A stretch of DNA of 64,000 bases from Candidatus Hermodarchaeum yapensis (GTDB taxonomy: Archaea > Asgardarchaeota > Hermodarchaeia > Hermodarchaeales > Hermodarchaeaceae). The stretch spans positions 68,042-132,041 of the forward strand of contig JAEOSK010000002.1 in the NCBI GenBank assembly GCA_016840405.1, read 5' to 3'. Below, piece by piece: positions 24,055 to 63,827 of the stretch (positions are counted from its first letter, which is position 1; each line of letters begins with the position of its first letter). The position numbers were made by a program, and so were the translations under genes. The notes beneath the pieces were generated by a model. It was not told where the DNA came from, did not search any database, and was given only the letters and a program-made list of their open reading frames with translations.

Positions 24055-25188
24055 ATGAGCAAACCCACATATATCTTCAAAGTTCCAGTTGCCGGTGATG
24101 GAGCAGTTGGAAAAACAAGTCTTATTGTTCGTTACACACAAGGGACCTTCACTGATACTTACAAAATGACAATCGGAACATCCTTTGCGGTAAAAACTGT
24201 GGACTTGGACAGTGTGATGGTTAAACTCCAAATCTGGGACCTAGCTGGACAACCACACTTTGGTGGAGTACGCCCCTTATTCTATCAGGGTTCTACTGGC
24301 GTTATTTACGTGTTCAGCGTAATCGATCGGTCATCCTTTGAACACTTGGTTGGGTGGCTCGAAGAGGCCCGAAAGAATGCAGGGAATGTGCCCGGTATTT
24401 TAATTGGAAATAAAACGGATTTGTTGGAACAACGAGAAGTTTCGCGTGAAGAGGCTGAAGCCTACGCTGCACAAGCTGGGTTGAAGTATATTGAGACGAG
24501 TGCGAAACTAGATGAGAACGTAGGGGATGCGTTTCAGCAGGTAGCAGTTACGATTATTCAAACGAAATGGCCGGAGTGGGGAGAGGTCGTGGAAGAACCA
24601 GTCCCTGCAGAACCTGAACCCGCCGTTAAAGCTCCAGCTGAGCCAGAGCTGGAGATTGAACCAACTGAAGAACCCGCAGTTCCCGTTGAAGAACCGACTC
24701 CTGAGGAGCTATTAGTCGTAGAGGCAGAAATACCTGAAGCAACGTTTCCAGAACCAGAAATACCCGAACCCATTCCTGTACCAGAATCTGAACCGTGGGT
24801 GGAAGAGGAGCCTGTTCCCCTTGACGAACCGGTTCCAATTGAAGAACCTGCTCCAACAATTGAAAGTGTTGAACCCATTGAGCCAATAGAACCGCCGGTA
24901 TCTGAGGAACCAACGATTACTCCTGCTGAATCTGTTCCTGTGGAAACACCACGTGAAGAAGCAGATATCGTTGTTGAGCATAAGGCTGAATCAAGTCTAG
25001 TAGAGTTTATCGGGGTTGATCCCCACTCACTCCAGGATGATGATTTTGAAAAACGAGCCGTGCACGCCATGAACCGTTTGGGTGTAAGTGAAGTCGGTGT
25101 ATTGGGCACTTTTTTGCGAAGTCTTATCCGTCAAGGTCAACGTGATGTGGTAATTGAGAGTCTAGAAAGCCTTCAAGAAGAACGCTAG
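24055..25188 (+). CDS. Ras/Rab-like small GTPase with long Pro/Glu-rich spacer and C-terminal helical domain
   Basis: G1 GDGAVGKTS, G3 WDLAGQ, G4 GNKTDL, G5 ETSAK. AAGGAG precedes the ATG. Confidence 0.85.
   Translation: MSKPTYIFKVPVAGDGAVGKTSLIVRYTQGTFTDTYKMTIGTSFAVKTVDLDSVMVKLQIWDLAGQPHFGGVRPLFYQGSTGVIYVFSVIDRSSFEHLVGWLEEARKNAGNVPGILIGNKTDLLEQREVSREEAEAYAAQAGLKYIETSAKLDENVGDAFQQVAVTIIQTKWPEWGEVVEEPVPAEPEPAVKAPAEPELEIEPTEEPAVPVEEPTPEELLVVEAEIPEATFPEPEIPEPIPVPESEPWVEEEPVPLDEPVPIEEPAPTIESVEPIEPIEPPVSEEPTITPAESVPVETPREEADIVVEHKAESSLVEFIGVDPHSLQDDDFEKRAVHAMNRLGVSEVGVLGTFLRSLIRQGQRDVVIESLESLQEER
24586..24960 (+). repeat. low-complexity Pro/Glu/Val/Ile-rich coding tract (about 125 aa)
   Basis: PEPEIPEPIPVPESEP, EPIEPIEPP and similar. 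It generates mirror-image spurious ORFs on the opposite strand. Confidence 0.7.
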
Positions 25189-32034: not shown

Positions 32035-33099
32035 ATGCCAAAAAATAAGAAAGCTATACTATTACTATCGGTACTAGTTCTTACTTTGACCCTTGGCTTC
32101 TTGGCACCGAACCGTTCAGCCCGTGCTCAGGATCTTTTTGCTGGGAAGATCTTTGCATTCTACAACGTCAATGGAGCTGATCAAGCTAATTCTCCAGAAA
32201 CAGTTTCTGAATTCACTGCTTGGTGGAGAAGTGAGGGTGGAGGTGCTGAGAACATTACCGACTTGACTGCTGAAACATTAGAAGGTGTTAACTTTCTAGT
32301 TCTCAACTGTCCTGATGCTGACCAAGATGAAACCCATCCAATTTCAGAATTCACAACAGCGCAAGCTGAAGCTGTGAGAGATTGGTTCCTTAACACCACG
32401 ACAGGTCACCATTTCCTCTGGTCAAGTTCTGACTCATCATTTACATACGCTGGTTACGCTGATGCTTATCGATCCAATAATGCTTCGATGATTCTTGAGG
32501 TTCTCGGTTCGCAATTACGGTATGAACCAACATCCGTTGAAGATCCTGACTATAATACCGGTGATAGGCCATATCGTCCAATACTTAACACAACATCTAC
32601 TGATCCTATGGTAGCAAGTATTGTGGCAAACGTTACTGACGTCTTGGCTCACAGCCCAACACTCCTCTATGGGATGCAAGATTCTACTCCCGTTGCTCTC
32701 GAAGATACAACTTTGCCCAATGTGTACCCCATTCTAATGACAGGTGCAGCCGGTATCATTAACGATCCGACACCGTTAGATGTAATGTACGCCCACACCA
32801 ATGGTGAAGAAGGCAACTTTGTTATGGTTGCTGCTGAACTGGGTATCGGTGGTACAACACACCGATTGATTGCTTCTGGTGCAGCTCCTATTGGCGGCTA
32901 CAATGCAATGTGGTTCGACGAATCCAAAGGCACCGAACTTACTGGCTCTCTCTTCATAAAACAAGCAGTCATGTGGGGCATGGAAGAACCAGCAGGACCG
33001 CCACCGCTTCCGATGGATCTCATCCTCATTGGTGGAGTCGCAGTGGTAGTCATCGTTGTAGTAATTGGTCTCGCCTACTTCCTGCTACGAAGACGGTAG
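32035..33099 (+). CDS. secreted hypothetical protein with C-terminal TM anchor
   Basis: Signal peptide, many N-x-S/T sequons, C-terminal LILIGGVAVVVIVVVIGLAYFLLRRR. Confidence 0.5.
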   Translation: MPKNKKAILLLSVLVLTLTLGFLAPNRSARAQDLFAGKIFAFYNVNGADQANSPETVSEFTAWWRSEGGGAENITDLTAETLEGVNFLVLNCPDADQDETHPISEFTTAQAEAVRDWFLNTTTGHHFLWSSSDSSFTYAGYADAYRSNNASMILEVLGSQLRYEPTSVEDPDYNTGDRPYRPILNTTSTDPMVASIVANVTDVLAHSPTLLYGMQDSTPVALEDTTLPNVYPILMTGAAGIINDPTPLDVMYAHTNGEEGNFVMVAAELGIGGTTHRLIASGAAPIGGYNAMWFDESKGTELTGSLFIKQAVMWGMEEPAGPPPLPMDLILIGGVAVVVIVVVIGLAYFLLRRR

Positions 33100-33691: not shown

Positions 33692-34897
33692 GTGCTAGTG
33701 ACTAAACGGTGGGTTCTGATCCTTTTTTCCTTGCTCTTAGTAGCTCCAGTCAGTTTCTTGAGGAAATCGCCGCTGAGCTCATCAACCGTACCAGAGCCAG
33801 ACTACTGGCCCACCGATGATTGGCTAGTTTCCACACCTGAAGAACAGGGTATGCGATCAGAGTTGTTGACGCAATTGATGGACACAATTCATGAACTAGA
33901 CTTGAATGTCCAATCATTTCTCCTGATTCGCCATGGTTATATCGTCTTCGAAGAGTATCCTGATCCATGGTATCACGAAGATCGAACCCATTTCTTGGCT
34001 TCAGTCACCAAGAGCTTCATGGCTGGGTTGATAGGCATTGCGTTGGATAAAGGATACATTGGTAGCCTTTCAGATCGTGTGATCGACTATTTCTCTGACC
34101 GGACCATTGCGAATGTTGATACTTTGAAAGAAATGATGACGATTCGTGACCTCCTGACAATGAAGACAGGTATGCTCTGGGACGAAGGCAGTTATTCCTA
34201 TTGGGATTCACGAAATTCGTTTGTTCAGATGGAAAACAGCGATGATTGGGTACAGTTTGTCCTCGACCGTCCTATGGCTAGGTTTCCGAACCAGAAATGG
34301 TACTACAACACCGGGGCTTCACATCTGCTTTCAGCGTTGATTAATCAGACAACCGGAAATTCAACCCTCTCTTTTGCCCGAGAACATCTTTTCACACCAC
34401 TGGGTATTGGTCAATCGACTTGGCAAACCGATCCTCAAGGTATCAATCCCGGTGGGTTTGGGTTAGACCTTACTCCACGGGATACCGCGAAATATGCCTT
34501 TTTACATTTACACCAAGGAATGTGGGATGGCGAACAAATCATTTCGTCCGGCTGGATAGCTGAGTCAACGCAAACCCATACCATGCTAGTCTACGGGAAT
34601 GGATATGGCTATCACTGGATTACATACCCGCTCTTCAATGCCTATGCTGCCTTTGGAGCTGGAGGACAAGGTATCTTTGTCTTCCCAGATTATGACCTCA
34701 TTGCAATTGTGAATTCTGAAGAGGCTGTGGGTATTCCGTTTACTGAGCTCATTCTGAATTTTGTGCTTCCTTCATTCACTGATGTACCATCTGCTGCGAT
34801 TATCCCTTGGAAGATTGGTTTTGTGGTATTGTTGATTATGGGTGTGTCGATTCCTTTTATCTATGTTTACGGTTTCAAGAGAAGGCGGGGTATTTGA
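33692..34897 (+). CDS. serine hydrolase, beta-lactamase/transpeptidase-like (class-C type), C-terminally anchored
   Basis: S-x-x-K motif SVTKSF, Y-x-N (YYNTG), signal peptide, C-terminal TM + KRRRG. Confidence 0.8.
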   Translation: MLVTKRWVLILFSLLLVAPVSFLRKSPLSSSTVPEPDYWPTDDWLVSTPEEQGMRSELLTQLMDTIHELDLNVQSFLLIRHGYIVFEEYPDPWYHEDRTHFLASVTKSFMAGLIGIALDKGYIGSLSDRVIDYFSDRTIANVDTLKEMMTIRDLLTMKTGMLWDEGSYSYWDSRNSFVQMENSDDWVQFVLDRPMARFPNQKWYYNTGASHLLSALINQTTGNSTLSFAREHLFTPLGIGQSTWQTDPQGINPGGFGLDLTPRDTAKYAFLHLHQGMWDGEQIISSGWIAESTQTHTMLVYGNGYGYHWITYPLFNAYAAFGAGGQGIFVFPDYDLIAIVNSEEAVGIPFTELILNFVLPSFTDVPSAAIIPWKIGFVVLLIMGVSIPFIYVYGFKRRRGI

Positions 34898-34997
34898 AGA
34901 CTTTGAGGCAATCGATTTAAGAGGTTTGTTTTCACAAGTCATCTTGGACTCTCTTAACTTGATTTAAGAGAATTAATTGAAGGAAGCTGTGGCTCGA

Positions 34998-35624
34998 ATG
35001 ATTCATGATATTTTGATTATTCATCGTCAGACTGAGGTCCCACTGTTTCATCTTATTCCTGCTGGTAAAAGTAAGCTCACGGAGATGAGTATGGACGCCC
35101 CTGTATTTTCCAAACTTGCTGTGACGATTGTCAGTGTGCTCAGGAATGCTGGTGCTTTAGAACGACTCCGGCTATTACAAGTGAAAATGGCGTTCAATGT
35201 GTTTGAAAACCTCATCTTTGCTATCTTAAGCTCCAATGATCATGATGAATTCGAACTCAACCATGCCCTCAACCGGTTTAGTTCGATGTTCCTTCAATCC
35301 TTTACACCTGAGGTTATCGACAAGTATAAGAACCAGCCATTGAGCTTCAGTGGATTCAATGTCAGCAATCTCTTCCGGTCTGATCGCGTTGTCATCAGTG
35401 ATACAGACACGCTTATGAAAAGCATGATTCAACGGTTAGCTGACATGATTGCTGTGGCTGGACGTCTGCAAATAGAAGCGGGGATGCTCGCGGAAAAGCG
35501 AAGTCTAGATGCCACTGTGATTATGAGCATCCAAGCTATGCATCAGGAACTTTTGAATAAGCTTGGTGAGCTAAAACAACGGATGGACCAGTTCCCCGTT
35601 CTTTCTGGAACAGGCTTTTCTTAA
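34998..35624 (+). CDS. longin/SNARE-like-superfamily domain protein with helical C-terminal extension
   Basis: MIHDILIIHRQTEVPLFHL... and VKMAFNVFENLIFAILSSNDHDEFELNHALNRFSSMFLQSF parallel the AP-sigma/longin pattern MIxxILIxNRxGxxRL...FKIIYRRYAGLYFCICVDxxDNxLAYLEAIHxFVEVLNEYF (from memory). Confidence 0.45.
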   Translation: MIHDILIIHRQTEVPLFHLIPAGKSKLTEMSMDAPVFSKLAVTIVSVLRNAGALERLRLLQVKMAFNVFENLIFAILSSNDHDEFELNHALNRFSSMFLQSFTPEVIDKYKNQPLSFSGFNVSNLFRSDRVVISDTDTLMKSMIQRLADMIAVAGRLQIEAGMLAEKRSLDATVIMSIQAMHQELLNKLGELKQRMDQFPVLSGTGFS

Positions 35625-63275: not shown

Positions 63276-63827
63276 TTATATAGACTTTGTCGTGTGTTGA
63301 TGGAGGAGCTCGGAAATAGTCTGAAAGAGATCTTTAACGTTTGCGCCCGTTTTCGCAGAAGTTTCCATATACCCTAGCATGTTAAGTTTTTTCGCGACTT
63401 TTTCAGCCTGTTCTTTTGTAACAACCCTATCTTCTTTCAAATCTACTTTGTTACCGACCAAGTACAGGAGAACTTCGGGTGCACCTTTACGGACATCATC
63501 GACCCATTCGTTAACGCATTTGAGTGAATCTTTTCGGGTAAGATCGTATACGACGATAGCGAAATCAGTTCCAAAGAGATATTGGACTCGTACTCGCCGA
63601 AATGAAGTTTGACCTGCAAGATCCCAGACCTGTAAGGAAATGTCCGAATCCTTCGCCTTGGTCTTAAACGTTGAAATCGCTGCTCCTAACGTCGCCTTGT
63701 ATCCTTCATCGAAAGAATCAGTCATGTAACGTTTGATTATCGAAGTTTTTCCGACGGCGTAGTCACCAATGACGGAGACTTTGAATCTGAATTGGCTGCC
63801 TTTCGCTTCCATTTTTTTAAACACCAA
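63276..63827 (-). CDS. Ras/Rab-like small GTPase
   Basis: G1 GDYAVGKTS, G3 WDLAGQ, G4 GNKVDL, G5 ETSAK. 183 aa, no C-terminal lipidation Cys. Confidence 0.85.
   Translation of the reverse strand: MVFKKMEAKGSQFRFKVSVIGDYAVGKTSIIKRYMTDSFDEGYKATLGAAISTFKTKAKDSDISLQVWDLAGQTSFRRVRVQYLFGTDFAIVVYDLTRKDSLKCVNEWVDDVRKGAPEVLLYLVGNKVDLKEDRVVTKEQAEKVAKKLNMLGYMETSAKTGANVKDLFQTISELLHQHTTKSI

Follow-up and report, generated by a model that had tools for sequence, protein, structure and literature searches.

A 64,000-nucleotide stretch of the Candidatus Hermodarchaeum yapensis genome (contig JAEOSK010000002.1, positions 68,042 to 132,041 of the forward strand; referred to here as the window) contains a forward-strand open reading frame (ORF) at 34977..35624, which is 215 amino acids (aa) long when counted from a TTG codon, as in the ORF listing of the 64-kb window. 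Translation from the ATG at 34998 gives a protein of 208 aa, P0001, with the N-terminus MIHDILIIHRQTEVPLFHL. P0001 is predicted to consist of a longin domain joined by an ordered linker to a conserved two-helix hairpin and a short tail, and it represents a family that is found in Asgard archaea and is annotated throughout as hypothetical. The ORF is present as a first-pass annotation of the sequence had described it, and the translation contains all of the strings quoted there. The features of the gene are as follows, with residues numbered from the ATG at 34998.

34977..34997, forward strand: in-frame upstream TTG extension of 7 codons, probably untranslated, which holds AAGGAAG at 34980-34986; the extension is not kept in orthologs.

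34998..35624, forward strand: coding sequence of the 208-aa longin-hairpin protein P0001, stop codon included (ORF listing and translation); an equivalent Met starts every ortholog.

34998..35327, forward strand: predicted longin core, aa 1-110, with beta1 at 2-9, beta2 at 15-19, alpha1 at 34-51, beta3 at 56-58, beta4 at 63-69, beta5 at 72-78, alpha2 at 84-101 and a short helix at 104-109 (AlphaFold2 [AF2], Foldseek and profiles).

35232..35255, forward strand: acidic loop between beta5 and alpha2, S79-N-D-H-D-E-F-E86, conserved, with D81 nearly invariant and S79, D83 and E86 fully so (alignments A1 and A3).

35328..35402, forward strand: linker, aa 111-135, predicted to be extended and well ordered, with conserved F120, V122, L125, F126, V131 and I133 and a small beta-hairpin at 126-131 (AF2, column statistics and hhalign).

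35403..35492, forward strand: predicted helix A, aa 136-165, with hydrophobic residues at heptad positions a and d(e); K141 is nearly invariant and R146 invariant (AF2 and column statistics).

35493..35510, forward strand: turn, aa 166-171 (E-K-x-S-[LY]-D), in which D171 is invariant and the adjacent positions are Gly-rich in subfamilies (GGYD, LDG) (alignments and AF2).

35511..35585, forward strand: predicted helix B, aa 172-196, with heptad hydrophobic residues; M181 is invariant (AF2 and column statistics).

35586..35621, forward strand: C-terminal tail, aa 197-208, with a conserved [FL]-P200-[YV]-[VL]-x-G204 followed by a variable, low-confidence end (alignments and AF2).

The start codon is likely to be ATG 34998 rather than TTG 34977, because all of the orthologs begin with MI[HY]D (alignment A1) and because the Shine-Dalgarno-like AAGGAAG lies upstream of this ATG, at a distance of 12-18 nt and within the TTG extension. 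P0001 contains no Cys and no stretch hydrophobic enough to span a membrane; its C-terminus reads ...FPVLSGTGFS, with neither a hydrophobic C-terminal segment nor a CAAX motif. Judged from these features of its sequence, it is soluble, Cys-free and cytoplasmic; the family to which it belongs is specific to Asgard archaea.

A word-indexed search of 5.8 billion proteins returned 38 relatives with 53-100% identity, all of them from Asgard metagenome-assembled genomes (MAGs) with Promethearchaeota or Hermodarchaeota labels and all annotated 'hypothetical'; an exhaustive phmmer search of 1.84 billion representatives gave nine matches only, including distant full-length relatives at 24-35% identity. 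A 1716-aa repeat protein (P0041) matched in the exhaustive search was set aside as spurious. A profile search widens the full-length family to ~60 clusters, with divergent subfamilies that are labelled Baldrarchaeia, Borrarchaeum, and Asgardarchaeum or Asgardarchaeia in cluster look-ups, and one with the label 'Odinarchaeota'; outside a few Asgard lineages the profile search did not find the full-length architecture. Among 400 genomes of the phylum, this architecture (profile positions 1-205) is present in 5 of the ~30 Asgard families sampled, usually as a single copy, and the carriers are Hermod-, Baldr-, Borr- and Asgardarchaeia-labelled lineages. The ratio of nonsynonymous to synonymous substitution rates (dN/dS) among orthologs is ~0.05 in the N-terminal domain and in the C-terminal helices alike, and the C-terminal part is constrained at least as much as the N-terminal domain, comparisons that are qualitative because dS is near saturation. 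These substitution patterns indicate strong purifying selection on all parts of the protein, and the ~60 ortholog clusters, together with the low dN/dS in both halves, exclude a chance ORF. We note that two orthologs carry in-frame stop codons: L014 (G107:C335:2037-2645) has one TAG, and L023 (G309:C33:1406-2011) has a TGA and a TAA, the G309 version stopping at 187 aa, within helix B; these stops could be sequencing errors or mark pseudogenes or a truncated variant.

An AF2 run on 20 close orthologs gave an unusable model, with a predicted local distance difference test score (pLDDT) of 52.6, and was superseded by a run on a 62-row alignment made up of the full-length family, its distant subfamilies and 17 paralogous N-terminal domains of the same genome. 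The second model has a mean pLDDT of 89.4 and a predicted template modelling score (pTM) of 0.79, with low confidence (pLDDT <50) at residues 203-208 only, and its beta-beta-alpha-beta-beta-beta-alpha order is that of a longin domain. Searched against the PDB with Foldseek, the model gives 23 matches at E <= 1e-3, and all 23 are longin proteins; AP-1 sigma (3.5e-7) and AP-2 sigma (5e-6) are at the top, followed by AP-3 sigma, COPI zeta, COPI delta, Mon1 and Ccz1, and just past E 1e-3 there are Sec22b, VAMP7, AP mu N-domains, Fuzzy, TRAPP Bet5/Trs23, LAMTOR and the MK-D1 roadblock protein. According to the model, residues 1-110 almost certainly adopt the longin fold, and at the level of the fold this is a longin domain of the sigma-adaptin, zeta-COP or MON1 longin-domain-1 type, in which the comparison does not separate sigma/zeta from MON1. 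The invariant residues of the longin part are D33, K63, S79, D83 and E86 (family alignment A3), and an acidic loop lies at the same place as the S79-E86 loop in the wider Asgard longin-like superfamily. The linker that follows the core resembles in its register the C-terminal segment of sigma-adaptin.

The first-pass annotation had called the N-terminal part longin or AP-sigma-like, and the model bears this out, both in its topology and in having AP sigma and COPI zeta as its best PDB matches. The Foldseek search with an AlphaFold model, which had been suggested there as a check, returned only longin or roadblock folds; of the two outcomes that were held to speak against that annotation, a non-longin fold and a disordered, unconserved C-terminus, neither was seen, the predicted fold being longin and the C-terminus ordered and conserved.

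Profile searches point in the same direction, with scores that are below the curated cut-offs. The single Pfam match of P0001 is to Fuz_longin_1, at E 0.094 and 13.4 bits against a gathering cut-off of 26.1; the same model is matched by 8 of 12 diverse family members, with a best E of 5e-4 and all of them below the cut-off. A search of P0001 against NCBIfam gave nothing, and phmmer against the PDB and the close-family profile gave chance matches only (an rRNA methylase and AIMP1). The family hidden Markov model (HMM) recognises the N-terminal ~120 aa, at E 1e-15 to 1e-6, in numerous further Asgard proteins with lengths of 125-1422 aa, and a bridging profile (A4) that combines the family with these wider Asgard relatives, and in which the relatives dominate, matches longin domain 1 in four separate MON1 chains of known structure (E 6e-4 to 1.2e-3), followed by dynein roadblock (0.0095), Trs23 (0.14) and AP sigma (~0.3). 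A relative in which the same domain is fused to an Arf-like GTPase matches both Fuz_longin_1 (2e-4) and Clat_adaptor_s (7e-4); sub-threshold matches to Clat_adaptor_s (7e-4 and 8e-4) occur among paralogs and relatives, and P0001 has none. With hhalign, the alignment of the target family to AP-2 sigma2 (a supplementary comparison only) has a register that runs on into the C-terminal VDEMFLAGEIRETS...L segment of sigma. The AP-sigma register that had been proposed by eye is reproduced in this alignment, but the alignment itself is not significant (E 0.11).

The MON1/CCZ1/FUZ/HPS1 longin domain 1 (Fuz_longin_1, PF19036) is the only recurrent Pfam match of the family, and the E-values of Mon1 and Ccz1 in the Foldseek search lie between 4e-4 and 1e-3. 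P0001 differs from these tri-longin RabGEF subunits in having one longin domain rather than three, and 208 aa rather than ~400-650; its sequence matches are all below the Pfam gathering score, and no Ccz1-like partner was identified.

Column statistics taken over 41 family members show two heptad-patterned segments in the C-terminal part, the first with hydrophobic residues at 140, 143/144, 147, 150/151, 154, 157, 161 and 164, and the second at 175, 178, 181, 185, 189, 192, 196 and 199. A polar, Gly-rich linker splits the two, with Gly common at 168, 169 and 172 and Pro at 176 in some sequences, and in the AF2 model the chain turns at 166-171, both arms being predicted with high confidence. 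We are confident in the prediction that residues 136-196 fold into a hairpin of two antiparallel helices, in which each arm has eight heptad layers and the turn a conserved Asp/Gly character. The nearly invariant K141 and the invariant R146, M181 and P200 are kept across subfamilies that share only ~22% identity. PDB matches of a profile of the C-terminal 93 aa are to generic coiled-coil and helical-bundle proteins only. The long amphipathic helix or coiled coil that had been envisaged over the last ~90 aa is accordingly right in being helical and heptad-patterned, but it is shorter, at ~62 aa (136-196), and is made of two helices with a conserved turn between them.

Because the first-pass annotation had compared this layout with that of an R-SNARE such as Ykt6, the defining features of SNAREs were looked for in P0001; these are a continuous helix of ~60 aa with 16 layers, a Q or R zero layer, and a transmembrane (TM) domain or CAAX anchor (10.1101/810531). 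The continuous motif is absent from the AF2 model and from the alignment columns, where the helices at 136-165 and 172-196 are parted by the Gly-rich turn. There is no Q/R zero layer, the central a/d positions being 168, which is variable (Q, G, K, S or R), and 171, which is the invariant Asp; nor does P0001 have a membrane anchor, as it contains no TM segment, no Cys and no CAAX or CCAIM sequence. Pfam searches with the whole of P0001, 12 family members and 19 C-terminal fragments gave no SNARE, Synaptobrevin or syntaxin match at E <= 10, and there is no SNARE among the PDB matches of the C-terminal profile. The heptads that the suggested SNARE-motif profile check was to look for are present, and none of the SNARE features accompanies them; the R-SNARE/Ykt6 identity is rejected for want of a continuous motif, a zero layer, an anchor and a SNARE profile match, and P0001 is very probably not a SNARE.

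In eukaryotes, the switching of small GTPases in membrane traffic and nutrient signalling takes place on longin and roadblock proteins, which act as scaffolds. The explanation that we favor, and which taken as a whole seems probable to us, is that P0001 is an Asgard longin-hairpin protein that serves as a GTPase-linked platform; the narrower proposal that it is a GTPase-linked adaptor or regulator is drawn by analogy and is offered tentatively. P0001 would act as a non-enzymatic binding platform, in the way of stand-alone longins (Mon1-Ccz1, TRAPP Bet5/Trs23, AP sigma with Arf1, and SRX), and would dimerise with itself or with a longin paralog; the platform would dock or regulate one of the Ras-superfamily GTPases of the archaeon. 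As an integral module, the hairpin would mediate packing or oligomerisation, and the C-terminal tail may be a short docking motif.

The genome, a MAG that is 86% complete, contains ~30 Ras-superfamily GTPase genes and encodes ~20 proteins with longin-like domains, and the link between P0001 and GTPases comes through such homologs, the same N-terminal domain being found both fused to Arf-like GTPases (as in L027) and encoded beside GTPase genes. In the fusions of the same genome (C65:92755-93624(+) and C14:73779-74645(+)) the longin domain is N-terminal to the Arf-like GTPase (Pfam Arf 1.9e-19 and 1.7e-18). Two longin paralogs, of 351 aa (C10:19079-20131(-)) and 274 aa (C63:10371-11192(-)), are encoded directly next to same-strand Ras-family GTPase genes (C10:18543-19013(-) and C63:9847-10314(-) respectively), and we regard the C10 and C63 neighbors as candidate matched regulator-GTPase pairs.

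A similar picture has been drawn for other members of the class. Asgard longin and roadblock proteins are regarded as platforms for GTPases that are usually encoded outside GTPase operons (Tran et al. 2024, PMC10933270), and the P0001 gene, like those of the MK-D1 longins described there, shares no operon with a GTPase gene; the context of the gene and the fusions of its paralogs fit this non-operonic view. The Asgard longin class is large, with ~130 Roadblock/longin clusters of Asgard orthologous genes (asCOGs; Liu et al., 10.1101/2020.10.19.343400), and fusions of longin domains to Arf- or Rag-like GTPases are among the catalogued families of Asgard eukaryotic signature proteins (10.1101/2020.10.19.343400; PMC10933270). 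The N-terminal domain of P0001 is homologous, at the HMM E-values given above, to catalogued longin/Roadblock proteins of this kind in stand-alone, Arf-like-fused, winged helix-turn-helix-fused, TM-fused and coiled-coil-fused forms. P0001 departs from this superfamily in that its alpha1 does not have the typical L-x-S-G-F-L-S-A motif, and in that its family has its own highly conserved helical hairpin and P-x-x-x-G tail; in the literature we found neither the family nor its hairpin described. The family is another member of this large, known class, and the current picture is unchanged by it, as the class is already catalogued and the SNARE-like reading is unsupported. P0001 is nevertheless compact, highly conserved, easily expressed, single-copy and distinguished by its hairpin, and would be a convenient bait for the cognate GTPase or another partner. 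To our knowledge, almost no Asgard longin or roadblock protein has an assigned partner.

Several points weigh against the GTPase-platform explanation, or against parts of it. No curated longin model passes its gathering threshold on P0001; the alignment given to AF2 is thin for the C-terminal part (~45 sequences), and that the hairpin packs against the longin core is suggested by the pTM and pLDDT values only. The role as a GTPase partner is deduced solely by analogy and from paralogs; the P0001 gene has no conserved neighbor beyond the genus in any lineage, and no GTPase is fused to it. The family alignment contains no conserved Arg or other recognisable catalytic-assist residue in the longin part, and therefore exchange factor (GEF), GTPase-activating (GAP) and effector roles are indistinguishable; as regards the Arg finger of longin GAPs (FLCN, NPRL2 and SMCR8), there is no invariant Arg at aa 1-115, and the sole invariant Arg is R146, in helix A.

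It is also conceivable, if unlikely, that P0001 is a regulatory or sensor adaptor that works apart from GTPases, the longin domain then serving generically for dimerisation or for sensing a ligand, and the hairpin as a coiled coil that connects it to proteins of signalling or transcription. Fusions of Asgard longin-like domains to winged helix-turn-helix or two-component domains are numerous, those with two-component domains having been reported by Liu et al. (10.1101/2020.10.19.343400), and the N-terminal domain of P0001 is itself found fused to winged helices (in a 241-aa family with PF01978/PF16221, and in HTH_47/MarR paralogs of the same genome), to TM regions, to tetratricopeptide repeats and to coiled coils. 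However, P0001 has no DNA-binding or signalling domain, and the proteins nearest to it in structure and in profile searches are without exception longins of trafficking or of GTPase platforms.

Rather less can be said for P0001 as a small chain, sigma- or zeta-like, in a primitive complex of the coat or adaptor type; the chain would be nested in a large subunit that is an alpha-solenoid, in the way that AP sigma is in alpha/gamma-adaptin and zeta-COP in gamma-COP, and we consider this reading quite unlikely. AP sigma and COPI zeta (PF01217) provide the best structural matches (E 3.5e-7 to 7.5e-4, with template modelling scores normalised to the target of 0.59-0.71), and full-length AP sigma and COPI zeta align over 147-164 columns, more than the bare longin core; these proteins have in common with P0001 a longin core with extra C-terminal helical elements and a similar size, and like it they are soluble and built as a single domain with an extension. 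The hhalign register that reaches the sigma C-terminal segment (at E 0.11, as a supplementary comparison) and the sub-threshold Clat_adaptor_s matches of paralogs are in keeping with such a role, and Asgard clusters resembling AP sigma and COPI zeta have been reported (10.64898/2026.10.28.762692). In contrast, P0001 itself has no Clat_adaptor_s match and no significant profile match to these families; the root mean square deviation is 8-13 A over the long alignments, so that the C-terminal helices are placed differently, and they are longer, forming a hairpin of 2 x ~27 aa. The coat-subunit reading is weakened further because there is no adaptin-type trunk: the 86%-complete genome has no Adaptin_N match above threshold and no adaptin or COPI large subunit was found in it, its HEAT-like matches reach at best 20.6 bits against a cut-off of 37, and weak Adaptin_N matches like those of this genome also occur in ordinary control prokaryotes. 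Nor does the gene have a conserved neighbor.

An improbable alternative is that P0001 acts in the cytoplasm as an adaptor that binds single-pass surface proteins by their short, basic tails. The same-strand upstream gene at 33692-34897 encodes a beta-lactamase-fold surface protein that ends in a TM helix and KRRRGI, and the neighbor in a sister genus is also C-terminally anchored with a basic tail; yet the neighbors differ between the two genera, and neighbors of this kind are missing in the four other Asgard families with the gene. By a crude count ~13% of the genes of the genome end in a TM helix, which gives a chance of ~24% of loci for one of two neighbors, and 2 of ~7 lineages with such a neighbor is the chance expectation. 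The adjacency was dismissed, being seen only in the Hermodarchaeaceae, the family from which the window comes, and at chance frequency.

Both arms of the hairpin share one heptad register that is unbroken across the turn, and it is for this reason that a conformational switch can be imagined, in which a closed, folded-back hairpin would alternate with an open helix of ~60 residues that joins a coiled-coil bundle with other proteins; we think this very improbable. If true, Asgard lineages that have no recognisable SNAREs would possess, in P0001, a longin protein without an anchor that is pre-SNARE-like or tether-like.

Least credible of all is an anchor-less, R-SNARE- or Ykt6-like longin-SNARE, the C-terminal helices being a SNARE motif that would lie folded against the longin domain and open out to join a four-helix bundle: the longin SNAREs (Ykt6, Sec22b and VAMP7) likewise have a longin domain followed by ~60 helical, heptad-patterned residues, Ykt6 also being without a TM segment, the unbroken register of P0001 can be read as 8 hydrophobic, 2 polar and 8 hydrophobic layers, and giant-virus longin-SNAREs are the top, weak matches in a viral fold library (E 1.4e-3, template modelling scores 0.30-0.42), but P0001 differs from these SNAREs in every feature considered above (the helix confidently broken at 166-171, the central positions that are never a conserved Q or R, the missing lipid-anchor Cys and the lack of profile similarity), solved longin-SNAREs align to it by Foldseek over the longin domain only, and the full-length architecture is confined to a few Asgard lineages.

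The neighbors of the P0001 gene are, upstream, the gene for the beta-lactamase-fold surface protein and, downstream, a convergent nitroreductase gene followed by AsnC-type, DsrE-like and Lpd-like genes; synteny with them is kept within the genus only, and no neighbor is shared across families. Two upstream surface-protein genes, 33692-34897 (+) and 32035-33099 (+), end in a single TM helix and an Arg-rich tail (KRRRGI and LLRRR respectively). Two small GTPases are encoded in the window, at 24055-25188, ~10 kb away, and at 63276-63827, ~28 kb away (Ras family, 6.8e-48), neither of which is syntenic with the P0001 gene in other genomes; in the former, on the forward strand, the Ras-family domain lies inside a 390-aa open frame (genome C39:92120-92599, Ras E 8.4e-51).

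Some of the wider relatives have architectures that we note in passing. The longin-Arf-like fusion, which is already known, also occurs in L027, L028 and L030 (genomes G300-G303), from very small Asgard genomes of 1.0-1.4 Mb. A protein of ~690 aa combines this longin-like domain, at its N-terminus, with a long region behind it that is rich in coiled coil (C28:18059-20146(-); L029:1465-3342 in G116; G117-G121 and G345); it is kept across several distant Asgard families, and the rest of it has no Pfam assignment. The 241-aa family of longin-like and winged-helix proteins (PF01978/PF16221; P0069-P0155) is extremely conserved, with an identity of over 60% in the N-terminal domain among MAGs labelled Loki-, Thor- and Hermod-, and this family dominates profile searches made with the Asgard longin domain.

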